DNA from: Eledone cirrhosa
Lineage: Eukaryota
DNA: 64,000 nt
Direction of reading: 5' to 3'
Assembly (NCBI GenBank): GCA_964016885.1
Contig: OZ024740.1
Location: 361,708,001-361,772,000 of the forward strand
The notes under the pieces were generated by a model that had not been told where the DNA came from, did no database searches, and worked only from the letters and a program-made list of their open reading frames with translations. A program made the position numbers and the translations under genes. This document shows, piece after piece, positions 5,987-59,627 of the stretch; position 1 is the first letter of the stretch, and every line of letters starts with the position of its first letter.

Positions 5987-6500
5987 ATGGCTGCCCCATC
6001 GTTATCGAGTATGGCCATTGCACGATATAAATGCAAATACATACACACATATATATTCATATATATTCATATATATATTCATATATACATACATATATAT
6101 ATGGTGGCTGCCAACTCGTTTTCGAGTACGGCCACTACTTTATATCCATGTAGGAGAACCCCTACCGATGCGCTGAACGAGTGTGACTTTTTAGTCCAGC
6201 CAGCGACTTGAAAACTCTGGTACAAACACTACACTTGTGACAATTATTGACACATAGTGCTTTGCCTTTGGTACCATGTGACGACAAGTGCAGAGAGATC
6301 TCCAGATACAAAGCAATGCCTGTGCCGTGAAGCTCTTATAGTGAGCAAAGGCACTGCACAAAGCCAGTCCCACTCTCTTAACCAAGATGATATTTACCAA
6401 AAAGAAGAACAAGTCAACATCATTGGATACCATCAGAGTTGCAAGTGTTATATCAGAGTTTTCCTTCTCCTAGAATTCTGCCTTGACAAAGGCTAAGGGG
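5987..6500 (-). mobile_element. Decayed 3' end of an RTE-like LINE; same terminus at 14543-14575 and 28988-29050
   Basis: Repeated terminus atggctgccc..ttatcgagtatggcca next to microsatellites; weak RWL..GH.R-like remnant on the minus strand. Confidence 0.45.
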
Positions 6501-6512
6501 TCATCTCTCCCA

Positions 6513-7003
<491 letters not shown>

Positions 7004-7889
7004 AGAACAAAAGATGGTTAAAAGAGTTCCATGTATTTTATTATGCGCATTTCAAAAACAAATATCATCATGCAATAATATTTGTGTTTTCATCAGATAA
7101 AACAGGAAGACATGATATGAAGATTAAAAAACACTTGTGGATAGTGCAGTTTTAAATCAACATATCATTTGTTCTTATATATTATATATACTCCAGTCCT
7201 ACAAACTGTAGAGTGCTTCTTATCCGATATCTGCATTGCTTTATTGTACTACAATAAAACTCACCTCCTACATATATATATATATATGTATGTATATATG
7301 TATGTATGTATATGTGTGTATACATATATATACATACATATATGTATATATATATATATATATTTATGTTTGTGTACACATATACATACCTACACACCTA
7401 CATACATAATACATACATACATAATACATACCTACCTACCTACATACGTACATACATACATACATACATACATACATACATACATACATACATACATACA
7501 TAATTATACAGACAGTAAAACTGACAAAGACAGACATACAAAATAAAACAACAACAACAACACAAACCCCAACAAATACTTTTTTTTTACTTTGATGCCT
7601 TCTTATATGTCACGAATGGTAAATTCTTTCTTTGAAAAAAATCAAAGGAAAAACCAATATTGCCGCCAATGTTTTAACGTTTAAATATGATTACTTATAC
7701 ATTTGTTTATGATTTTATTAAGATAATTAGAGGATATTATTTAAATAAAAGGCAAGCGGCAATTAATATATGCCTCTGAGCCACTCTACTGCAATGTTGC
7801 TGAACAATTACGAGACGAACATTCTCAGAGAAAATGGAAAACAGTCTTTCGAGGCCTCAGGTTTCTAATGAGAAATTGCTGATGGTGCT

Positions 7890-9590
7890 TGTAGAGCGTA
7901 ATGGTGGAGGTGACAGGGAGTAATGATAGTGTGTGGTGGTGGTGGCAGTTGTAGTGGTGGTGGTAGTGGAGGTGGTAGTGGAGGTGGTAGTGGAGGTGGT
8001 AGTGTTGGGGGTAGTGATGGTAGAGAGTAATGGTGGAGGTGACAGGGAGTAATGATAGTGTGTGGTGGTGGCGGTTGTAGTGGTGGTGGTAGTGGAGGTG
8101 GTAGTGGAGGTGGTAGTGTTGGGGGTAGTGATGGTGGTGGTGCTGGTAGAGAGTAATGGTGGAGGTGACAGGGAGTAATGATAGTGTGTGGTGGTGGTGG
8201 CGGTTGTAGTGGTGGTGGTAGTGGAGGTGGTAGTGGAGGTGGTAGTGTTGGGGGTAGTGATGGTGGTGGTGCTGGTAGAGAGTAATGGTGGAGGTGACAA
8301 GGAGTAATGATAGTGTGTGGTGGTGGTGGCGGTTGTAGTGGTGGTGGTAGTGGAGGTGGTAGTGGTGGTGGTAGTGTTGGGGGTAGTGATGGTGGTGGTG
8401 CTGGTAGAGAGTAATGGTGGAGGTGACAGGGAGTAATGATAGTGCGTGGTGGTGGAGGCGGTTGTAGTGGTGGTGTTAGTGGTGGTGGTAGTGGTGGTGG
8501 TAGTGGTGGTGGTAGTGTTGGGGGTAGTGATGGTGGTGGTGCTGGTAGAGAGTAATGGTGGAGGTGACAGGGAGTAATGATAGTGTGTGGTGGTGGTGGC
8601 GGTTGTAGTGGTGGTGTTAGTGGTGGTGGTAGTAGAGGTGGTAGTGTTGGGGGTAGTGACGGTAGTGGTGGTAGTGGTGGTGGTGGTGGTGGTGGTAGTG
8701 GTGGTGGTAGTGGAGGTGGTAGTGTTGGGGGTAGTGATGGTGGTGGTGGTAGTGGTGGTGGTAGTGTTGGGGGTAGTGATGGTGGTGGTGCTGGTAGAGA
8801 GTAATGGTGGAGGTGACAGGGAGTAATGATAGTGCGTGGTGGTGGTGGCGGTTGTAGTGGTGGTGTTAGTGGTGGTGGTAGTGGAGGTGGTAGTGTTGGG
8901 GGTAGTGATGGTAGTGGTGGTAGTGGTGGTGGTGGGGTGGTGGTAGTGGTGGTGGTAGTGGAGGTGGTAGTGTTGGGGGTAGTGATGGTGGTGGTGGTAG
9001 TAGTGGTGGTAGTAGAGGTGGTAGTGTTGGGGGTAGTGATTGTGGTGGTAGTGTTGGTGGTAGTGGAGGTGGTAGTGTTGGGGGTAGTAATGGTGGTGGT
9101 GGTGGTTGTGGTAGTTGTGAAAGTGATGGTGGTGGTGGTAGTAGTGGTAGTGGCATTGACGTGGTGGTGATGGTAGTGGTGGTAGTGGTGGTGGTGGTAA
9201 TGGTGGTGGTGTTAGTAATGGCGGTGGTAGTGCTAGGGGTGGTGGTGGTGATGGTGTTGGTGGAGGAGGTGGTGAATGTGAGAATTGAGTGATAGTGACG
9301 GAGGGTGTCGTGGTTGTGATGGTAGTGATGTTGGCGGTGTTAGTGGTGGTGTTAATGCTGGTGGTGAAGATGGTAGTGGTCGTGATGGTGGTGTTGGTGG
9401 TAGTGCTAGTGTTGGGGAAGGTGGTGCTGATGCTTGTGGTAGAGGGTCAGGTGGTGGTGGTTGTGGTAGTAGTTGTAGTGGTTGTTCTGGCAGTCGAAGT
9501 GTTGGAGTGGGGGTGTTAGTGGTAGTGGTAATGATAATGGTTCTGGTGTTAGTGGGGGTGACGGTGGTGTAGCAGGGGGTAAGGATAGTG
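7890..9590. repeat. GGT/AGT-rich minisatellite (about 120-135 bp units to about 8900, some longer) grading into low-complexity sequence
   Basis: Anchor gagtaatggtggaggtgacagggagtaatgatagtg recurs about 7 times. Confidence 0.9.
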
Positions 9591-16279: not shown

Positions 16280-19200
16280 TGTAAAAGGGTGGACAGAGAT
16301 ACCTGTAGAAAGGTAGACAGAGACACCTGTAGAAAGGTAGACAGAGACACCTGTAGAAAGTTGGACAGAGATACCTGTAGAAAGGTAGACAGAGACACCT
16401 GTAGAAAGTTGGACAGAGATACCTGTAGAAAGGTAGACAGAGACACCTGTAGAAAGGTGGACAGAGACACCTGTAGAAAGGTGGACAGAGACACCTGTAG
16501 AGAGGTGGACAGAGACACATGTAGAAAGGTGGACAGAGATACCTGTAGAAAGGTAGACAGAGACACCTGTAGAAAGGTGGACAGAGATACCTGTAGAAAG
16601 GTAGACAGAGACACCTGTAGAAAGTTGGACAGAGATACCTGTAGAGAGGTGGACAGAGACACCTGTAAAAAGGTAGACAGAGACACCTGTAGAAAGGTAG
16701 ACAGAGACACATGTAGAAAGGTAGAGAGAGACACCTGTAGAAAGGTAGACAGAGACACATGTAAAAAGGTAGACAGAGACACCTGTAGAAAGGTAGACAG
16801 AGACATATGTAGAAAGGTAGACAGAGACACCTGTAGAAAGGTAGACAGAGACACATGTAGAAAGTTGGACAGAGATACCTGTAGAGAGGTAGACAGAAAC
16901 AAATGTAGAAAGGTAGACAGAGACACATGTAGAAGGTAGACAGAGACACATGTAGAAAGTTAGACAGAGACACATGTAGGAAGGTGGACAGAGACACATG
17001 TAGAAAGGTAGACAGAAACAAATGTAGAAAGGTAGACAGAGACACATGTAGAAGGTAGACAGAGACACATGTAGAAAGTTAGACAGAGACACATGTAGGA
17101 AGGTGGACAGAGACACATGTAGAAAGGTGGACAGAGACACATGTAGAAAGGTGCACAGAGACACATGTAGAAAGGTAGAAAGAGACACATGTAGAAAGGT
17201 GGACAGAGACACCTGTAGAAAGGTAGACAGAGACACATGTAGAAAAGTAGACAGAGACACATGTAGGAAGGTGGACAGAGACACATGTAGAAAGGTGGAC
17301 AGAGACAACTGTAGAAAGGTGGACAGAGACACATGTAGAAAGGTAGACAGAGACAACTGTAGAAAGGTGGACAGAGACACATGTAGAAAGTTGGACAGAG
17401 ACACATGTAGGAAGGTGGACAGAGACACATGTAGAAAGTTGGACAGAGACACATGTAGAAAGGTAGACAGAGACACCTGTAGAAAGGTAGACAGAGACAC
17501 ATGTAGAAAGTTGGACAGAGACACATGTAGAAAGATAGACAGAGACACATGTAGAAAGGTAAGCAGAGACACCTGTAGAAAGGTAGACAGAGACACATGT
17601 AGAAAGGTGGACAGAGATACCTGTAGAAAGGTAGACAGAGACACATGTAGAAAGGTGGACAGAGACACATGTAGAAAGGTAGACAGAGACACATGTAGAA
17701 AGGTAGGCAGAGACACCTGTAGAAAGGTAGACAGAGACACATGTAGAAAGGTGGACAGAGACACATGTAGAAAGGTGGACAGAGACACATGTAGAAAGGT
17801 AAGCAGAGACACCTGTAGAAAGGTAGACAGAGACACATGTAGAAAGGTAGACAGAGACGCATGTAGAAAGGTGGACAGAGACACATGTAGGAAGGTGGAC
17901 AGAGACACATGTAGAAAGGTGGACAGAGACACATGTAGAAAGGTGGACAGAGACACCTGTAGAAAGGTGGACAGAGACACCTGTAGAAAGGTAGACAGAG
18001 ACACCTGTAGAAAGGTGGACAGAGACACCTGTAGAAAGGTAGACAGTAACACATGTAGAAAGGTAGACAGAGACACATGTAGAAAGGTGGACAGAGACAC
18101 ATGTAGGAAGGTGGACAGAGACACATGTAGAAAGGTGGACAGAGACACATGTAGAAAGGTGGACAGAGACACCTGTAGAAAGGTGGACAGAGACACCTGT
18201 AGAAAGGTAGACAGAGACACCTGTAGAAAGGTGGACAGAGACACATGTAGAGAGGTAGACAGAGACACCCGTAGAAAGGTGGACAGAGACACATGTAGAA
18301 AGGTGGACAGAGACACATGTAGAAAGGTGGACAGAGACACCTGTAGAAAGGTAGACAGAGACACATGTAGAAAGGTAGACAGAGACACCTGTAGAAAGGC
18401 AGACAGAGACACATGTAGAAAGGTGGACAGAGACACATGTAGAAAGGTAGACAGAGACACATGTAGAAAGGTAGACAGAGACACATGTAGAAAGGTAGAC
18501 AGAGACACCTGTAGACAGGTAGACAGAGACACCTGTAGAAAGGTAGACAGAGACACATGTAGAAAGGTGGACAGAGACACATGTAGAAAGGTAGGCAGAG
18601 ACACCTGTAGAAAGGTAGACAGAGACACCTGTAAAAAGGTAAGCAGAGACACCTGTAGAAAGGTGGACAGAGACACATGTAGAAAGGTGGACAGAGACAC
18701 CTGTAGAAAGGTAGACAGAGACACATGTAGAAAGGTGGACAGAGACACCTGTAAAAAGGTAGACAGAGACACATGTAGAAAGGTAGACAGAGAGACATGT
18801 AGAAAGGTGGACAGAGACACCTGTAGAAAGGCAGACAGAGACACATGTAGAAAGGTAGACAGAGACACATGTAGAAAGGTAGACAGAGACACACGTAGAA
18901 AGGTGGACAGAGACACATGTAGAAAGGTGGACAGAGACACATGTAGGAAGGTGGACAGAGACACATGTAGAAAGGTAGACAGAGACACACGTAGAAAGGT
19001 GGACAGAGACACACGTAGAAAGGTGGACAGAGACACATGTAGAAAGTTGGACAGAGACACCTGTAGAAAGGTAGACAGAGACACATGCAGAAAGGTAGAC
19101 AGAGACACATGTAGAAAGGTGGACAGAGACACATGTAGAAAGTTGGACAGAGACACATGTAGAAAGGTAGACAGAGACACCTGTAGAAAGGTAGACAGAG

Positions 19201-19800
19201 ACACCTGTAGAAAGGTGGACAGAGACACATGTAGAAAGGTAGACAGAGACACATGTAGAAAGGTAAGCAGTGAGACCTGTAGAAAGGTGGACAGAGACAC
19301 CTGTAGGAAGGTGGACAGAGACACCTGTAGAAAGGTAGACAGACACACCCGTAGAAAGGTAAGCAGAGACACCTGTAGAAAGGTGGACAGAGACACCTGT
19401 AGAAAGGTAGACAGAGACACCTGTAGAAAGGTAAGCAGAGACACCTGTAGAAAGGTGGACAGAGACACCTGTAGAAAGGTGGACAGAGACACCTGTAGAA
19501 AGGTGGACAGAGACACCTGTAGAAAGGTAAGCAGAGACACCTGTAGAAAGGTGGACAGAGACACATGTAGGAAGGTGGACAGAGACACATGTAGAAAGGT
19601 GGACAGAGACACCTGTAGAAAGGTGGACAGAGACAACTGTAGAAAGGTAAGCAGAGACAACTGTAGAAAGGTAGACAGAGACACCTGTAAAAACGTAGAT
19701 AGGAACACCCGTTAAAAGAAGGACGGAAACACCTTTAAAAAGATGGACAAAGACACCTGTACACATGGACAGAGACACCTGTAAACGGTGGACAGAGACG
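16280..19800. repeat. 24-bp minisatellite, about 145 copies (consensus GACAGAGACACMTGTAGAAAGGTR)
   Basis: Seen directly; contains a duplicated 119-bp higher-order unit at 16891/17010 carrying a 1-bp deletion. Confidence 0.98.
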
Positions 19801-25027: not shown

Positions 25028-25107
<80 letters not shown>

Positions 25108-25185
25108 ATTGTGTATTAATATATGTACACATATACACACGCACACACATATATACTTATATATATATATACTTATATATATGTT

Positions 25186-25255
<70 letters not shown>

Positions 25256-25486
25256 TTAGAAACACACAGATACATGCGGACACACACATATACATGAATG
25301 CATCCGCACCCAACCGTGAGTTAAGGGTGCCAACTTCACCGATGTTGCTCAATGAATGACTGGGACAGACCAATCCGGTTGAACTAGACTGAACCAGTAT
25401 CAGAGTTAAAAATACATTATGAAGAGAGAAGAAACATTTAGATATAATTAGTAATAAAATGTATCATACCTAAACTGCTCCTAGAT

Positions 25487-25576
25487 TCCTCGACTACGTA
25501 GTTTCGTGGCATAAACAAAAACAATACATCATAAAGATATAGAGTCCTTGCGAGGTCTGCCGACTTATCAAGAGGA
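25487..25576 (-). ncRNA. Type I hammerhead, U3-A8 variant (inverted arm copy)
   Basis: Reverse complement of 25710-25799. Confidence 0.75.
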
Positions 25577-25709
25577 TACCTCATTTTACTAGTCTCAAGA
25601 ACGCGTCTACACGACGTGAGAAAGAATCCCAAAAGGCGGAGGGGGAGATAGTCACGCGATATAACGGTCGAGAAACAGAGCTAAGCCTCTTATAACCCCG
25701 AATGAGGTA

Positions 25710-25799
25710 TCCTCTTGATAAGTCGGCAGACCTCGCAAGGACTCTATATCTTTATGATGTATTGTTTTTGTTTATGCCACGAAACTACGTAGTCGAGGA
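25710..25799 (+). ncRNA. Type I hammerhead, U3-A8 variant
   Basis: tcctc TTGATAA gt(c)ggca...tgccac GAAA ctacgtag TC gagga. Confidence 0.78.
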
Positions 25800-26301
25800 A
25801 TCTAGGAGCAGTTTAGGTATGATACATTTTATTACTAATTATATCTAAATGTTTCTTCTCTCTTCATAATGTATTTTAACTCTGATACTGGTTCAGTCTG
25901 GTTCAACCGGATTGGTCTGTCCCAGTCATTCATTGAGCAACATCGGTAAAGTTGGCACCCTTAACTCACGGTTGGGTGTGGATGCATTCATGTATATGTG
26001 TGTGTCCGCATGTATCTGTGTGTTTCTAAATATATTGTTAATAGCTCCCTCTGGTCGAGCAATCTTTGAAGTGTGGGGACTGCCGGAAAGCTTCCATTAC
26101 TCATACTTCTCGCCCCCTTCACCACCTCTTCTACGGCTTCGATATAAATACCCCCTCCGCCTCCGTGGTATTTTCTTCGGGGTTATAAGAGGCTTAGCTC
26201 TGTTTCTCGACCGTTATATCGCGTGACTATCTCCCCCTCCGCCTTTTGGGATTCTTTCTCACGTCGTGTAGACGCGTTCTTGAGATTAGTAAAATGAGGT
26301 A

Positions 26302-26391
26302 TCCTCTTGATAAGTCGGCAGACCTCGCAAGGACTCTATATCTTTATGATGTATTGTTTTTGTTTATGCCACGAAACTACGTAGTCGAGGA
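26302..26391 (+). ncRNA. Type I hammerhead, U3-A8 variant
   Basis: Same motif in tandem unit 2. Confidence 0.78.
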
Positions 26392-26894
26392 ATCTAGGAG
26401 CAGTTTAGGTATGATACATTTTATTACTAATTATATCTAAATGTTTCTTCTCTCTTCATAATGTATTTTTAACTCTGATACTGGTTCAGTCTGGTTCAAC
26501 CGGATTGGTCTGTCCCAGTCATTCATTGAGCAACATCGGTGAAGTTGGCACCCTTAACTCACGGTTGGGTGCGGATGCATTCATGTATATGTGTGTGTCC
26601 GCATGTATCTGTGTGTTTCTAAATATATTGTTAATAGCTCCCTCTGGTCGAGCAATCTTTGAAGTGTGGGGACTGCTGGAAAGCTTCCATTACTCATACT
26701 TCTCGTCCCCTTCACCACCTCTTCTACGGCTTCGATATAAATACCCCCTCCGCCTCCGTGGTATTTTCTTCGGGGTTATAAGAGGCTTAGCTCTGTTTCT
26801 CGACCGTTATATCGCGTGACTATCTCCCCCTCCGCCTTTTGGGATTCTTTCTCACGCCGTGTAGACGCGTTCTTGAGACTAGTAAAATGAGGTA

Positions 26895-26984
26895 TCCTCT
26901 TGATAAGTCGGCAGACCTCGCAAGGACTCTATATCTTTATGATGTATTGTTTTTGTTTATGCCACGAAACTACGTAGTCGAGGA
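26895..26984 (+). ncRNA. Type I hammerhead, U3-A8 variant
   Basis: Same motif in tandem unit 3. Confidence 0.78.
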
Positions 26985-27071
26985 ATCTCGGAGCAGTTTA
27001 GGTATGATACATTTTATTACTAATTATATCTAAATGTTTCTTCTCTCTTCATAATATATATATATATATAT

Positions 27072-27165
27072 AGAAGTGGGTACACAACAGTTAGTTCACC
27101 ATACCGAGAACAATTCTGAGTGCTCTACCACTACGGATATTACCTTCCAGTGATCTAGCACTAAA
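27072..27165. mobile_element. Miniature inverted-junction copy of the family at 58565-58800, between (TA)n tracts
   Basis: agaagt..cacaacagttagttca..ccgagaacaatt joined to ctgagtgctctaccactacggata; both parts occur at 58565-58770. Confidence 0.7.
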
Positions 27166-43874: not shown

Positions 43875-44066
43875 ATGTAATTTGATGTTAAAATCTAACG
43901 ACTCATCTCCGCATGCTGTCTCTGTGCGGTGGTTTGGTTACAGCACAGCAGATGTATCGCTTGATTCTCGTTTAATGTATCATCACGTTTTTTTTAATCA
44001 TATGTCACTTGTATATATTTATATCATTAAAAACATTTAACCAATATATATATATATATATATATA

Positions 44067-45788
44067 CACCCGCCACTCTCCTCAGGGTCGAACAACGAAC
44101 CATCTTCACCCTACAGACTCACACTCCCCCGGCCTGAACTCCCCACCCTTATTCCTTTAGCCTTCGACCGCCCCCCTCCCCCCACACATATCCCCCACTA
44201 ACACCACTAACACACCCTCCTTTTCACCGCCGACCCCACAACTAACTATACTAACACCTCCACCCCACACCCGACAACCTTCCCCAACTAACATACTAAC
44301 ATCCCTCCCTTCTTCTCCTCCCCCTCCTTATCACACGCACACACACCGGTACATATATACACGCGCTCACACTAAACACACACCCTACTACCACCACTTA
44401 CCCTCACCCCCACACATCCACCCCACCACCCCGCAACTAACATCACTAACACCCCCCGACCCCAAGCACACGAACATACACACCCACTTACACCACCCAC
44501 TCTACACGCAACTAACATCACTAACACCCCCCAACCCTACGCACACGAACACACACACCCTCTTACACCACCCACTCTACACACCCTACCACCACTGACC
44601 CCCACTCACACCCGCATTCAACCCTTTCTCCACCTCCAGTATACTAACACCCACTAACACCCCCTTCACCACACACACACTCATCCAAACACGCACACAC
44701 ACACACCAGTACACTACACTCCCTCCATCGGCCCCCACACCCTTCTCTCCCCGCTCCACCCACACCCTTTCTCTCACACACAAACATCCCACTAACACCT
44801 CTACTAATACACACACACCCCCTCCTCACTCCAACTTTCACACCTACCCATCCTCTCCTCTGTCCACCGCACCTCCGCACACACTGACACACCGACTTTC
44901 TTCACTTACCATTCTACCCTACTGTTGCTATGCCCTTATCTCTGACCACCTCCCCGCGCACACAGACACACAACCCTCCTCCTGCCTTGACCCTCTGACC
45001 ACTTCCTGTTGCGCGCGCACCCCACATCTCCCCTCTTCCGACCAATCTCTTCACGGATTACACATATGTGAACATCGATCCCTAGAATCCACCACATCCC
45101 AAGGATGTTACTCAGCATTCCACCACATCGTCTCCGGAACTACCTTAAGGACTCACCCACTGACATACACCCCAAAATATTTTTTTCCCCCACGCCACCT
45201 ACATCCACAACACGCATAAACACCACACACACACGTGCGTACCACCACATATTTACACATTCAGCCTCCGGAATCCTCTCCCCCACCCCTCTATCCACAC
45301 ACGCACACACACTCCGACCTACACGCCACCCCACACACACCTCTTCCTGAACATGCAACCCCGTTCTTCCCCCAACTCTTACTTTCACATACACACACAC
45401 ACACACGTACACCTACACACACACACCACCTTCAGCCCTCCCCGCTCGGACTCCTCGCCTCCCTCTCCCCACTCCACCCGCCACCACCCCTACACGCCCC
45501 ACATCATTCCACCACCTGTTTTACTTCATGTGTATTTTTATTTTTATTTTTATCATGCTTTTATATTTAATTTCATTTGTACCGTTTCCTCTCACCCCCT
45601 TTTTTCTATATGTCTCTCCACCACTCCCCTACACACCCTTGGAACTCTCTTCCCACACACTTTTCACCTGAAGAAGGGCTTATGCCCGAAACGTCGTTCC
45701 CCACCACCACCCCACTCTCAAGAGCGTGAAACTAATAAACCTTTGTTCGTACTGCCTCTCTGTTTTGTTCCCGTTCAATTTTTTACTA
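44067..45788 (+). mobile_element. 5'-truncated Penelope-like element: GIY-YIG C-terminus, long C/A-rich 3' region, HHR
   Basis: 44081-44160 reads LRVEQRTIFTLQTHTP/GLNSPPLFL* (one frameshift), matching the PLE E..I..L.T..P.GLN terminus; HHR at 45666-45697; (TA)n on both sides. Confidence 0.75.
45666..45697 (+). ncRNA. Minimal type I hammerhead motif
   Basis: ac CTGAAGA a gggc-ttat-gccc GAAAC GTC gt. Confidence 0.8.
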
Positions 45789-45809
45789 TATATATATATA
45801 TATATATAT

Positions 45810-45859
45810 AGTCTAACAAATTTCTTTCGTTGCACATCTGTAACATCATCAGTGGTACT
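45810..45859 (-). ncRNA. Degenerate type I hammerhead motif, related to the 34041-34626 family
   Basis: Minus strand: agtacca CTGATGA t gttaca-gatg-tgcaac GAAA gaaatttgt TA gact; shares nearby tacgccatttt. Confidence 0.6.
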
Positions 45860-45947
45860 ATTATCATGTTTCCTCCTACTGTATTGTATCGTATTGTAAT
45901 ATCTACGCCATTTTTATTTTATCTATTTATTTATTAATATATATTCA

Positions 45948-47254
45948 CTCATAGCGGAATCAATGGCCGAGCTAGAGAAGAAATTCCAAACATGGAAGCA
46001 CGGCCTAGAGTCAAAAGGACTTAAAATTAACCTGGCTAAGACCAAAGTTCTAGTTTGTAGGAAAGAAAACAAGGCGGCGGTCCCTTCTGGGAAATGGTCG
46101 TGCTCGGTATGTAGGAAAGGCGTAGGTAGAAACTCCATCTTATGTCCTAAATGCAAAGTATGGGTGCATAAAAGATGTAGTGGGATCACAGGTAAGCTAA
46201 CTAAGAACATAGACTTTACATGTGGCCGGTGTTCTGGTGCAATAAGTAGCAGCAAGTGCCCACAAAATACTAGCTCTTTCAATTGCGCAGAGGGTTCTAT
46301 AGAAATAGTGGACAGCTTCCGTTACCTGGGCGATAAAATCAGCAGTGGGGGAGGGTGCTCTGAAAGTACTGTAGCTAGAGTCAGAACTGGTTGGAAAAAG
46401 TTCAGAGAGCTTATACCACTATTAGCTGCTAAAGGGTTCTCCCTAAAAATGAAAGGCAGGTTGTACGATGCCTGCATACGAACAGCAATGTTGCATGGTA
46501 GTGAGACCTGGGCATTGTGTGCAGAAGATATACGCAGACTAGAGAGGAACGAAGCTTGCATGCTCCGCTGGATGTGTAACAGTAATATACGTGAACGGCA
46601 AAGCATAAACGAACTAAGGAAAAAATTAGAGATAAGAGGGATCAGATGTTGTTTACTCGAGAGAAGGCTGCGTTGGTATGGACACGTGATGCGCATGAAA
46701 GTCGATAGCTGTATTACAAAGTGCAGGGCAATAAAGATAGACGGTAGCCACGGAATAGGCAGACCTAGAAAAACATGGGATGAGCTGATAAACTCCGACC
46801 TCACACACTTACACCTCTCCAAGACAATGTCACTGGACCGTGACCTTTGGCGGTACTCAGTAACAGAGAAGACCCGCCTTGCCAGTAGGCATCTCTAACA
46901 AAATACACCCCGTCCCGCCACCACCCCCACCCCATCCACACCACCCCGTTCTATGTAAAGTTATGTTGGTGCCGCGCCATCCAGGCCGAAACAAATGAGA
47001 TCGTGTAGGTGTCACGACAAAAAAACACACAGTCCACGCTGTAATGTGGCCGTGAAGGCAACACGGTAAAAACCTCCCAGACCCACACTGTAAATGTGGT
47101 TGGTGTTAGGAAGGGCATCCAACTGTAGAAAACCTGCCAGACAGTCCTATGCGAGCAAGACAATCACTCTTGCCTCAAGTGGGACTACCCCCGTCCAAAC
47201 CCATGCAAGCGTGGAACACGGACGTTAAACGTTGATGATGATGATGATGATGAT
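45948..47254 (+). mobile_element. 5'-truncated RTE-clade LINE with 3' UTR and (GAT)n tail
   Basis: RT C-terminal motifs and a short tandem-repeat tail. Confidence 0.9.
45963..46898 (+). CDS. RTE LINE ORF, C-terminal part of reverse transcriptase with PHD-like zinc finger (partial, not a host gene)
   Basis: GLKINLAKTKV, FRYLG, MLHGSETW, RRLRWYGHVMR, GRPRKTW; CSVC..CPKC..H..C..CGRC. Confidence 0.85.
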   Translation: MAELEKKFQTWKHGLESKGLKINLAKTKVLVCRKENKAAVPSGKWSCSVCRKGVGRNSILCPKCKVWVHKRCSGITGKLTKNIDFTCGRCSGAISSSKCPQNTSSFNCAEGSIEIVDSFRYLGDKISSGGGCSESTVARVRTGWKKFRELIPLLAAKGFSLKMKGRLYDACIRTAMLHGSETWALCAEDIRRLERNEACMLRWMCNSNIRERQSINELRKKLEIRGIRCCLLERRLRWYGHVMRMKVDSCITKCRAIKIDGSHGIGRPRKTWDELINSDLTHLHLSKTMSLDRDLWRYSVTEKTRLASRHL

Positions 47255-52759: not shown

Positions 52760-55700
52760 AAACTGAAAACAACAACAACGACAACAACGACAACAACAAC
52801 AACACTAAAGACAACAAAAACAACAACAACACCAACAACAATGATAACAACAACACCACCAACAACAACAGCAACACGAACAAGGAAAAGGTCTCCTTCG
52901 CCCAGACTGCAAGGAAAACCCTCGACTATCTGCCTTAGATATAAGCAAAGCTAAGGAGCTACTGGCAGATGCCAAAAAATACGTAGTGTACGGGGAAAAT
53001 GGATCATTTTCGACCCCCACCCCCACCCCCCGGAACTAAAAAGCCAGAGATTCCTAAACACTGTCATGTTTAGGACAGTGTTAAACAAAACCAAAAAACC
53101 ATCACAGAGTGAGATAGAGCTGGTTTTAAAAGATGTCATGAAAGACATATTCATTCAGAAGGATAGACTCTCATGAATAAAAATTCACACCACCCTTCCG
53201 ATTATGGACATATGGTGAGTATTGACAGGTTTCCTGGACCTAGACAATGACACATTAATATCCATGGGAAAGGCATTGGGTGACGCGTTCAGTGGAACGG
53301 GCCTCGAACTTGTAGTTCAAATGAGGCCCGAAAGGATCGCCCAGATCCCTGAACGCGTCATACTGGATGATCAAACTTTTATTAACATTACCGTTGAGGG
53401 TAGGCGGCCCTCATGTTACCTCTATGGAGCCAGAGGTCACCTGAAGGCTGTCTGTCCTCAACTTAAAAAGAAAACCCCAATCCCGCCTACACCACCAACA
53501 ACTGCACAACCAACACAATCACCACAACCACCACTACAAAACAACAACCACAGCTCAAACCAAAACAAAACACTGTCCAACCCATCCCCCCCACTCAAGA
53601 AAAAACAATTTCCAAAACACCCGCACCGCAAACACAACCCGAAAATCTACCCCTCCCCTCCAACACGGAAGATGACCCTCGTTCGTCGTCAGACGAGGAG
53701 GAGCACTTCCACACAATCAAAAGAAAAAAAAGAAAACACACCTCAGACACACAAATGAAAACAACCCCTCCCCAAAACATAACACAGACACCAACACAAA
53801 AGAACACACAACAGCAAACAAAAAACACCACACAAAAACAAAAACATGCATACACATACATAAACACAAGAAATAAAAAAAAACTGCTAAACATTGTATA
53901 CAACAACAATTTAGTGAAAACCCAAGGGCCTAACTTCACCCAGGCAGGGGATTTCCACCACCTCGAAATGATTAAGGCCCCAGAGGACAAATACAAAACG
54001 CTAAAAAACTACTTTAAAGAGGACGTGCCCCCCCCCCTCCTCTGCGTCGGGCACATTAACCGCGTCCTCCTAAAAAATTTCGCCACCCCCTCCCCAAACA
54101 CCCACACAACTCAAAACACCCCAACCACACAACACACTGATGCCTCTACACTTTCACAAACCACCACCCTACCCAACAACCCATCCCCCACCCTCATGGA
54201 AATTGTGCAGCCCAATACCCGGGACGCAGAGAGGTAAGTGCCTTTTCTCTTCATCACCAACATGGCTATGCTAAGATTAGGCTGTCTAAATGCGCGTGGC
54301 ATGGGCTCAACTTGGAAGCAAGCAATGCTTCTAAATGACCTCAGGTCACAACGTATAGATGTGATGGTTATTTGCGAGGCCCGGATCAGCAACGTGCGAC
54401 AGCTGGCCCCCACCTTTGATGACTTTGAGATGCACGCATCTCTCTGTCAGCCCGGAGGTGAGGGTGGGGGTTGTCGTTCTGCTTCAAAAACATCTGGGTC
54501 TCGCAACACAGACGGTACATTTGGACCCGGAGGGTCGACTAGTGGTTCTGGACCTTGGCAGTGGTGAAGGCGGAGCGTTTAGGCTGGTAGCCGTCTACGG
54601 CCCTTTCGGGTCAACGCGGCCGGACTTCTTCCATCGTCTGGAGACTTTTCTAGGGACGTCCCGCTCCTTGCCATTAGTGGGGGATTGGAATGGTATCTTA
54701 GATGCACGTTTGGACTACGTAGGGGCTTGTCCCGATAGAGAGGGGTGTAACAGCCTCAAAGGGTTAATCGGCCGATTTGACCTGGCCGATAGATATCGAC
54801 TAGATTTTCCGACTGCGCCAACCTGGACTTGGGCAAATCGTAGCGGCTCATCTAGGTCGTACCTAGATAGGTTCTTAGTTAGAAATAAGAATAAGGACTT
54901 TTCAAGTTGTCCAAAAATGCTCATGGTTGGCTATTCAGACCACAAGTTAGTGACCTGCATGGTCAACCTTGACAGAACGCATAGACAGGGACCCGGTTAC
55001 TGGAAGCTCAACTTGTCCTTACCGGCAAGTAAAGCTTACAGGGACCGTATTAGCACCTTAGTTAAGGAGCGGTTGACGGGCGCCATCGTCAACAGCAGGT
55101 GGTGGGGATCTCTCAAAAGAGAGATTAGAGTAGTCTCTATAGAATTTAGTAAGGAGTTAGCCTCAAATAGAAATAGGAAGGAAAGGGAGTTGGTAGATAG
55201 TGTAGAAGAGGCAATTAGAAGCGGCGGCGTGGCCAGAGTGCTAGCGTCGAGAACGGCCCTGGGCTAGTTCTTCGACGCGAAACACGAAGGCTGCATCGTC
55301 CGAAGCAAAATACGTGCTCTGGGAAACGAGGGGACCAAAGCTGTTAGCTGGGCCCGCGTGACAGAGGCCAAATGAGGGAGTAGATCCACTATCCGGTCTT
55401 TGTGAGACCAGGATGGACGGGTGATCGTTGAACCTAAGCAGATGTGCGAGGCTTTTCAAAAGCACTTTGCCAGATTGTTCGGAAGGGGCGGGGAGCCGGT
55501 TGGGGAAGTCGACTTCGGTCCATACCTCGACGGCCTGCCGCGTCTCTCGGACAAGGAGGCGGAGTCCTGCGAGGAGCCGATTTCAGCCGCTGAGATAGAG
55601 GACGTGCTGAGCCAATGCAGCAAACGCAAATCCCCGGGTCTCGATGGTCTTCTATACGAAATATATCTAGCTATGCCGGACTTGTTCCCCGATTTCCTCG

Positions 55701-57636
55701 AGGCGGTCTACTGCAACTGGCAACAGAACGGGAGAATTCCCTGCGCTGTGACCAAGGGCGTAGTCACGCTAGTGAGGAAGGACGAGAACAAGGGGGACGA
55801 TATAAATAATTTCAGGCCCATAACTCTGCTAAATACAGAGTTACAGATTTTGGCCAAGGTGCTAGCAAAGAAGTTGGCGCTTGTCGTGGGCAACCTGGTG
55901 GTGCCCTCTCTCCTCCCTTCTGTATGTAATGACTCTAGAGCCACTGCTGCGGAAGTTGGAGTTGTTGCAGGGCATCCCGTTGGAACCAGGATTGCGGAAA
56001 GCGGTATCGGCCTACGCCGATGACGTAATGGTATCGACAGCCTCGGAAATCGGGGCGATCGGCACCTTACTGGAGGAGTACGATAGGTTTACAGGGGCTA
56101 AGCTCAACCGGAACAAGTCGATCAGTCTGCAACTCGGCACGTGGAGGGGAAAATCGATGCCCTCCGATGGCGTGGTCGGGCGCTGGACTGAGGCCCGGTG
56201 AAGGTGCTCGGGGTCTGGTTCGGACGAGACCTCCAGGTGGAGAAGAACTGGGGTGAGGTAACGAACAGGGTTTGCACTGACTCAGAAGTGGGCCGAGTGC
56301 AAACTGTCCCTGAAAGGTCGGGCGGAGGTGGCGAACACTTATATAGCGTCCGTCATCTACTACCGCCTGACCGTCGTGCCTTGACCAAGAGAAACGCTCG
56401 GCAAAATGGAGCGCGCACTCTTCCAATTCCTTTGGAAGAAACGGGCTCCTATGGTGAGGAGATCCATCTGCTGTCAACACCCTTCGAAAGGAGGGCTGGG
56501 GATGCCGTGGCTGATGATGCGTAAACACGCATTAAGGCTACGGCACCTCCAGGTATTCCTCACCGGTCAACCGGTGTGGGCCCCGTTTGTGAGGCGAGCC
56601 TTTGCCAGACTCGTCTCGCTCACCGAGCTGCAATCCTGGGTCAAGCAAAGACCGAGAAAACTGGGCACCTGGAACACTGAGTATGCCCAGGCGCTCACGG
56701 CCCTCTGGCTGGAGGACCCGGCTGTCAGTGGAGAATCCACCTCGTCATTCTATAGAGGGCTGGTGCGACGACGCCCTCGGAGAAGGCATGGAGGAAAACG
56801 AACTGGCCAACCTGTTCGGTAGGACATTCAGCCCGGGACCTATGGATAACTTCCAGAGGGCCCTGGCTTGGCAGTGCTACCGAGGGGCTCTGCCCGTTCG
56901 AGAAAGGCTCTACAGACACGGGCGCCCGAGTAGGGACCCCTCGAAAAAGATCTGTCCCAGATGCGGGTGCGACGAGGAAACCATTGCACACGCATTGGTA
57001 CACTGCTCGGGCATTTCCGATCTGTGGGACTATGTCGAACGACTGCTGTCACGGGTGGGACCGATCCGGTTGACCACCGAGTCTATTGTAACGATCAAGC
57101 CGCCTCCCCTCCTCAAAAACGAAGGAGAGGCGGTGTTTCTGTGCGTAATAGCCATGGCGAAAGAGGTTGTATGGTGGACGCGTCTGAAAGGGCTGAGGTC
57201 AGACACCTTTCTCTCTGGCCAACAACTGGTCCGTTTCTTCCGATATCATTTCGGAAGAAGGATCAGGATGGAGAGAGAGGTCCTGCACCCCAGCCGTTTT
57301 TATGAAAGATGGGTGAAAGTGGCGAGAATGGCCCGTGTGAATGGGCCTTCACTCTACATCAGACTGTAGGTGAGAAAGATGAAAGATCAAGGGAGCACCT
57401 TCTCTTTGTGCTCCTGGGGAGAAGGGTTGCACACTTTTTCGGGTGTGTGTGCGACCCCCAAGGCTCCTCCTCCCTATTGAGGATTTTGTTATTCAATTTA
57501 TTTTTATTATATTTTATATCTTATATTTTTATATTTTGTTATTGCCTCCTCCTTATTGAGGACGCCTTTTTATGTAAACTCCCCTCATTGTTCTTGTCCC
57601 ACTCTTTGACGCCCTGGTGGCAAATAAAAAGAAAGT
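52760..57636 (+). mobile_element. Decayed Tx1/L1-clade LINE ending at a (TATC)n tract
   Basis: ORF1 remnant with knuckle-like CYLYGARGHLKAVC; ORF2 from 54262; 3' aataaaaagaaagt. Confidence 0.9.
54262..57369 (+). pseudogene. LINE ORF2 (APE endonuclease, RT, zinc finger) with frameshifts, stops and an internal RT deletion near 55900
   Basis: LNARG, GDWN, SYLDRF, SDH, KSPGLDG, RPITLLN, YADD (56013-56024), GGLG, CPRC..ETIAHALVHC. Confidence 0.9.
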
Positions 57637-59038: not shown

Positions 59039-59627
59039 CACGGATGTATATCTGAAGTATCTTTTTTCTTTTTTTTTCTTTAATCCGATAGAATAAGAGT
59101 TTTTTTTTAAAAAGGGGGTTCTCATAAATGAGAATATTCTCATTACATAAAAATAAAGAGACTTTTTCAACTTCCAATTTTTCAACTTTTAATTTTTGAC
59201 TTTTTAAATTTAATATTTGATAAGATGAATTTACTCATTGAAACCTGTAATATTTTATAAAACCCCCTTTAAAATAAAACAAAAAAACTCTCACTCTGTC
59301 GGATTAAATAAAAAAAAAGAGAAAATAATTGTTTTTACTATTGGCACATGGCCAGCAATTACCCAGTACATTACTGGTACTCTATTTTATCGACCCCGTA
59401 AGGATGAAAGGCAAAGTTAACCTCGGCGGGATTTGAACTCAGAATGGCAGGGGCGTAATTCTATGCGTCAAAGCATGGCGTCCGACCCTCTACCGATACT
59501 GCCAATTCACCCACCAAATTCACCCCCCAAAAAGGATAAAATAATGCATTAAATATACTTCCGTGTTGTTTCCATTTTTACGTTTTACATATACCCTTTG
59601 ATTTGTAAGGAATTTTATCCTCCTTTT

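Follow-up and report, generated by a model that had tools for sequence, protein, structure and literature searches.

The insertion and its hammerhead motifs

The window, by which we mean the whole 64-kb stretch of Eledone cirrhosa DNA under analysis, contains an insertion of a ~592-bp repeat in which four copies of a type I hammerhead motif carry the core UUGAUAA (Table 1). As originally predicted, this core is exact in all four copies, and stem I, stem II, GAAA, the palindromic stem III and the GUC site could be confirmed letter by letter. The motif has UUGAUAA, GAAA, A15.1-U16.1, C17 and a Watson-Crick pair between positions 3 and 8, here as U3-A8, as a type I hammerhead core requires, and three helices surround the core with helix I open, helix III being stable only as a duplex between copies. 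That these two positions pair as C3-G8 in the active fold, which the original prediction took as established, is supported by the available sections of PMC3884650 and PMC3088659. The core-plus-stem 14-mer has four matches in the window versus 0.49 expected by chance, and none of 100 shuffles reached four.

Table 1. Positions of the features discussed (in the window unless a locus or contig is named)
Feature	Position	Strand	Remarks
Whole insertion	25249..27064	.	inverted 454-bp part (25249-25702), then on the + strand a partial unit, a full unit and a 291-bp terminal part
Reference repeat unit	26176..26768	+	593 bp as cut; hammerhead spacing 592 and 593
(TA)n microsatellite, left end of insertion	25044..25255	.	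target sequence
(TA)n run, right end of insertion	27056..27072	.	
Type I hammerhead motif, copy 1	25710..25799	+	U3-A8 core (TTGATAA) 25715-25721; predicted cleavage after C17 at 25794
Hammerhead motif, copy 2	26302..26391	+	core 26307-26313; C17 26386; identical to copy 1
Hammerhead motif, copy 3	26895..26984	+	core 26900-26906; C17 26979; identical to copy 1
Hammerhead motif, copy 4	25487..25576	-	in inverted part of insertion; core 25571-25565; C17 25492
Copy 1 stem I	25710-25714 with 25795-25799	+	TCCTC with GAGGA; 5 bp
Copy 1 stem II	25722-25728 with 25775-25780	+	GT.GGCA with TGCCAC; 2+4 bp, C bulged
Copy 1 GAAA	25781-25784	+	core strand
Palindromic helix III/loop 3	25785-25792	+	CTACGTAG, 8 nt
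Copy 1 cleavage-site bases	25793, 25794	+	U16.1, C17; GUC site
Hairpin extending helix II	25736..25770	+	15 possible pairs, 13 formed in window subfamily; internal loop to basal stem
Tail hairpin	26387..26457	+	downstream of cleavage site; ends just before preferred 3' end, unit position 291
Predicted monomer RNA between two cleavage sites	26387..26979	+	593 nt, 43% G+C; prediction only
Intact 775-aa Penelope-like frames	L203:2144-4471 and 6056-8383	-	RT, CX4CXXC linker, GIY-YIG
Region of intact 775-aa Penelope-like frame	G000:C4:28494800-28504700		U3-A8 hammerhead ~1 kb downstream of frame

The four 90-nt motifs in the window are letter-identical (one distinct sequence among four) because they are copies of one unit, and the units that carry them are 98.8-99.6% alike. 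They therefore count as one observation, not as the covariation that the original prediction had read into them.

The repeat unit of ~592 bp has a longest frame of 134 aa and no coding frame that we recognised, and a Pfam search of one of its reading frames gave no match. As in retrozymes, it is non-coding and low in G+C (43%), and three consecutive motifs on the forward strand lie 592 and 593 bp apart; tandem arrays of up to five motifs occur among the genome matches listed. Its copies are dispersed over many contigs and have variable, often inverted 5' ends, while their 3' ends are confined. Counted on loci L001-L068 (68 of the 168 loci), 76 of 81 distinct 3' ends lie at unit positions 283-293 (46) or 449-461 (30), and 71 of these 76 preferred ends run into at least (TA)5, versus one of the five others. 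Contigs of four runs, of unrecorded kind, were set aside as evidence of expression: they cover the unit and a unit-to-unit joint, which tandem DNA explains.

No Rfam hammerhead model matched at gathering score anywhere in the 64-kb window, and between 25400 and 27100 none of the four matches with E up to 10 is a hammerhead; matches to mir-268 and mir-3149 were rejected as far below gathering score. The missing Rfam match is not class-defining, and is likely due to the variant core and the long helix II.

Other hammerhead-like sequences and repeats occur elsewhere in the window. At ~7025-7105 (-), adjoining a long (AT)n tract (6514-7003), lies a hammerhead-like motif with a canonical CUGAUGA core, a long AT-rich helix II, a TGCGCA palindrome and a UA site, and a hammerhead-like word at 59207-59256 (+), rich in AT and with U3-A8 but with a loop 3 that is not palindromic, may be a decayed copy or chance. 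A 24-bp unit repeated 147 times forms a minisatellite at 16280-19799. Fragments of a LINE-like element at 53467-57366 match Exo_endo_phos (E 0.0025) and zf-RVT (E 6.9e-07), and an open frame of 332 aa at 45900-46898 (+), in which a PHD finger is matched (E 1.8e-06), is possibly the first frame of a LINE.

Descent of the core and constraint on the motif

We searched the genome (3.0 Gb in 1796 contigs) with a motif pattern that left positions 3, 7 and 8 free and fixed the flanks, so that its 7185 matches, compared with one for the control, are a lower bound. U3/A8 is found in 7153 of them and C3/G8 in none, the remaining 32 having single changes. U3 is replaced in 15 matches (8 C, 4 G, 3 A), all of which keep A8, and A8 is replaced in 17 (9 G, 2 C, 6 U), each of which keeps U3; one of the 15, at locus L053, resembles a chance match. 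Since position 7, which is free in hammerheads, differs about as often (13 matches), the single changes are best read as neutral decay after insertion, at the background rate. C3/G8 copies, or uncoupled changes at positions 3 and 8, were to tell against the original prediction. The former do not occur among the 7185 matches; the latter do, but in the light of position 7 they are decay, and the bar had been set too strictly.

The 3-8 pair is UA in all 18 aligned rows, which were hand-chosen from 49 distinct motifs. When the genome was searched for a C3-G8 relative that shares stem III, a single match came back; it lies in a rearranged copy, where the upstream word is there by chance, and is unrelated to the core. 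Candidate relatives with a shorter helix II (26 genome matches) were set aside as deleted or rearranged copies of the 592-bp family. Judging from sequence, then, the uniformity of the core among copies reflects descent, and the U3-A8 swap, measured against the general hammerhead consensus, is one inherited event with no covariation within the family. The change from C3-G8 to U3-A8 would have happened once, before the subfamilies split, and would have kept the pair between positions 3 and 8.

The U3-A8 core variant itself is not new, contrary to what the original prediction implied, and the 592-bp repeat is an ordinary new example of a published swap. In the parts of the literature available, natural U3-A8 cores have been in print since 2011 (Perreault et al. 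2011, PMC3088659), and section 8 of that paper, citing its ref. 32, describes such ribozymes as active in vitro. Its examples, as presented there, are scattered ones from database searches, whereas here a repeat family has thousands of copies. Cervera and de la Pena (2014, PMC4209133) describe U3-A8 in the Cercyon Penelope-like elements of Schistosoma mansoni (~1,300 matches), a variant that their first descriptor missed. This bears out the expectation that searches built on CUGANGA would pass over the present family, as does the lack of C3/G8 among its matches. From the accessible account of the Cercyon hammerheads, the motif shares with them the swap, the type I topology, a 5-bp helix I, a long helix II, a dimer-type helix III, copies in tandem and on opposite strands, and the failure of a CUGANGA descriptor. 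It departs from them in its 8-nt palindromic helix III, in a helix II that is bulged mid-stem and extended by 15 pairs, in having no additional base between A9 and G10.1, and in the great uniformity of its copies, which lie in a non-coding 592-bp unit. A Drosophila virilis Penelope variant likewise has a base bulged halfway along helix II and a helix III that is palindromic and lengthened; as described in the same source, its helix I is 2 bp long, its element is a coding one, and no U3-A8 swap is mentioned for it there.

The subfamilies of the repeat, which reach down to ~75% identity, offer a clean natural test of whether the motif is constrained. So as not to select copies by their hammerhead, we fetched loci with a non-hammerhead part of a divergent subfamily, ~77% identical to the window's, and used 27 of 30, leaving out L124 (the query itself), L135 (a duplicate region) and L131 (which overlaps L130). 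Among the 45 pieces that cover the core, two of them window-type copies, U3/A8 is read in 44, the remaining piece being gapped at position 3. Between the majority sequence of the divergent subfamily and the window unit, 1 of the 44 positions in the core and stems is different, versus 125 of 543 elsewhere (Fisher p 4e-4), and only 5 of 593 circular shifts of the mask gave a value as low. The differences by part are 0/13 in the core, 0/10 in stem I, 1/13 in stem II and 0/8 in the palindrome. A first contrast (1/44 versus 120/543) had been set aside because many of its loci were fetched by hammerhead patterns, and a TATA-like word at 26143-26150 was dropped as a promoter candidate, being absent from the divergent subfamily.

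These differences indicate that copies still spreading keep the whole motif. The original prediction had argued from covariation to selected catalysis; its claim of selection on the motif is supported, by this other test and in a single lineage comparison of sequences, while catalysis itself is not what the contrast shows. The invariant block (unit 117-145) extends past the motif and takes in the free position 7; part of the constraint could thus come from a further function.

Predicted folding and a proposed dependence on a dimer

From the structure of the insertion and the constraint on its motif, we think it probable that the window holds a U3-A8 type I hammerhead within a ~592-bp non-coding repeat of more than 7,000 copies, and that this repeat is a non-autonomous Penelope-like retroelement, a retrozyme, which depends on the motif to cut its RNA. 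Tandem copies would be transcribed together, two neighbouring motifs would join by their palindromic helices III into a dimeric hammerhead, and cleavage after the GUC would release a ~592-nt monomer, perhaps to be ligated into a circle whose fold leaves the hammerhead unformed.

Folding of the motif alone (26295-26400) is predicted to form stem I (pair probabilities 0.91-0.94) and the upper four pairs of stem II (0.89-0.91), with the two basal pairs of stem II at only 0.16 and stem III at 0.08-0.10, and the folding energy is no better than that of shuffles (z -1.4, 22/200). For the palindromic helix III, a 10-bp duplex with a second copy is predicted at -12.9 kcal/mol versus +1.5 kcal/mol for a single hairpin. 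By this calculation the palindrome favours a dimer, which fits the dimeric model that the available text of PMC4209133 describes for hammerheads of this sort.

The surrounding RNA changes the prediction. Stem I is predicted to be lost (probability 0.00) with 131 nt of upstream sequence or with the full tail; the tail hairpin sequesters the 3' half of stem I, in competition with the hammerhead. Likewise, it is the tail hairpin and the extension of helix II that make up the consensus fold of the alignment, in place of the hammerhead. The extension hairpin is kept in the subfamilies mostly through one-sided changes between A-U and G-U; over the 18 aligned rows the stems are nearly invariant and only two pairs change on both sides, a number that 81 of 500 shuffles match, and the covariation score was reached by 24 of 500. 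As a circle, the 593-nt monomer has a predicted energy of -174.5 kcal/mol versus -140.2 +/- 6.0 for 40 shuffles (z -5.7), with the hammerhead unfolded. Folding the hammerhead away may protect the circular monomer, or it may be a sign that cleavage is rare.

A stem I that is outcompeted in its predicted context would also suit a hammerhead descendant that no longer cuts, conserved as a promoter element or a binding site for reverse transcriptase, with U3-A8 a tolerated relic. Such an explanation would account for a conserved block that exceeds the motif and for a position 7 as fixed as positions 3 and 8, and there is precedent in the accessible literature: minimal Penelope hammerheads cleave poorly in vitro and Cervera and de la Pena (PMC4209133) allow for low activity or other functions, while Naiad elements spread without canonical hammerheads (PMC8557442). 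It has more difficulty with the pattern of what is kept. All 13 core positions, both strands of stem I and a palindrome 60 nt away are retained jointly, as a catalytic fold would demand, and the two departures from the consensus are precisely the positions that pair with each other. We therefore consider the loss of cleavage unlikely.

Mode of spread and candidate mobilisers

The name non-LTR retrozymes is used for non-coding units that are arrayed in tandem and carry a type I hammerhead (Cervera and de la Pena 2020, PMC7229834), and these have been argued to be non-autonomous derivatives of Penelope elements (Li et al. 2026, bioRxiv 10.64898/2026.07.22.740005). With the animal non-LTR retrozymes, as far as these accounts are available, the 592-bp repeat shares non-coding tandem units, one type I hammerhead in each and a G+C content under 45-50%. 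Its unit exceeds the 150-450 bp given in PMC7229834 and falls within the 51-972 bp of the later preprint. It differs from those retrozymes in its non-canonical core and helix sizes, and its circular RNA is a prediction only. Our literature search, with most subscription papers outside it, found no paper on this 592-bp family, though the supplements of the 2014 and 2020 papers may list it or a relative.

Among the traits that PMC8557442 gives for Penelope-like elements are tandems with partial units, a 5' copy in inverted orientation and insertion into microsatellites. All three are seen here, together with a fixed 3' end, as would be expected of a non-autonomous member. The dispersal of the copies, their fixed 3' ends running into (TA)n, their variable 5' ends and their inverted 5' parts fit target-primed reverse transcription. 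For a retrozyme of this kind, the reverse transcriptase and GIY-YIG endonuclease of a Penelope-like element that targets TA would copy the RNA into a nicked (TA)n tract, and this copying would give rise to more-than-unit and inverted insertions.

The same features of the insertions are hard to square with satellite-like DNA that spread at the DNA level with the motif as a passenger. The short tandem arrays, the lack of a reading frame and the lack of a homologous coding partner among those found could be taken that way, and yet a passenger should not be selectively conserved between subfamilies, and we regard this origin as very improbable. A chance look-alike in AT-rich DNA, to which the missing Rfam match and the unexceptional folding energy might point, can hardly be credited, as the subfamily contrast already largely refutes it: a complete core, three stems, a palindromic helix III and a GUC stand in the correct order, are conserved across subfamilies, and lie in a repeat of Penelope-type structure.

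If the 592-bp repeat is a retrozyme, it needs a coding element to move it. None of the coding elements that we found is homologous to the unit, which leaves the mobiliser a guess; the comparison for pseudo-LTR homology, which covered two young coding families, gave none with either. The first has intact 775-aa frames with reverse transcriptase, CX4CXXC linker and GIY-YIG endonuclease, many of them near-identical in the genome; GIY-YIG is matched at E 2.6e-06, above the Pfam cut-off, and RVT_1 at E 4.4e-06, below it. We call it Neptune-like from its linker and domain order as described in the available part of PMC8557442, not from a tree. The element ends in (TA)n at two preferred 3' sites. Its own hammerhead, ~1 kb downstream of the frame, is short, with the core UUGAAAA and a CCGG palindrome, and is unrelated to that of the 592-bp repeat; it has 13,143 pattern matches in the genome, with position 3 not fixed by the pattern. 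Of 15 loci checked, all have U3/A8, and so does every one of the 30 motifs that 27 of the 30 endonuclease loci contain. The coding family has no homology to the 592-bp unit beyond simple-sequence matches, and a likeness of their 3' ends (a T-rich word, then TA) was discounted as low-complexity. The 775-aa element is a candidate mobiliser only.

One could go further and propose a live pair, in which the intact Neptune-like U3-A8 element moves the 592-bp retrozyme by way of 3' ends that both have in common and that anneal to (TA)n, and in which the weaker core, the palindrome and the tail hairpin make cleavage dependent on a dimer and switchable. We offer this as a tentative proposal, more doubtful than not by a wide measure. 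If it were true, more than 20,000 hammerheads with a non-consensus core would represent selected tuning, and the pair would be a ready system for reconstituting Penelope-like retrotransposition. Should the intact U3-A8 Penelope-like element in fact mobilise the repeat, the role of the hammerhead in such retrotransposition would become directly testable. Whether or not one moves the other, two unrelated U3-A8 families account for more than 20,000 motif matches in this genome, where Rfam and surveys built on the consensus consequently undercount both hammerheads and retrozymes.

The second family (loci L100-L102 and L069; 13,699 first-look candidates in the genome) is a young, C-rich, Neptune-like one with a minimal hammerhead of canonical core, and it too ends in (TA)n. 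It was rejected as the coding partner of the 592-bp unit, to which it has no homology. In one locus (L013:2382-3103), a 5'-truncated reverse transcriptase of this family starts exactly where a divergent 592-bp unit stops at the second of its preferred 3' ends, from which we take TA-like targets to be common to both. An older copy of its 3' part (~73% identity) lies in the window at 44066-45810. Further repeat families are inserted beside copies of the 592-bp repeat, with CUGACGA or CUGAUGA cores and a CTAG palindrome at loci L039-L044, L025 and L048, and with a CUGAUGA core and CGCG at locus L031.
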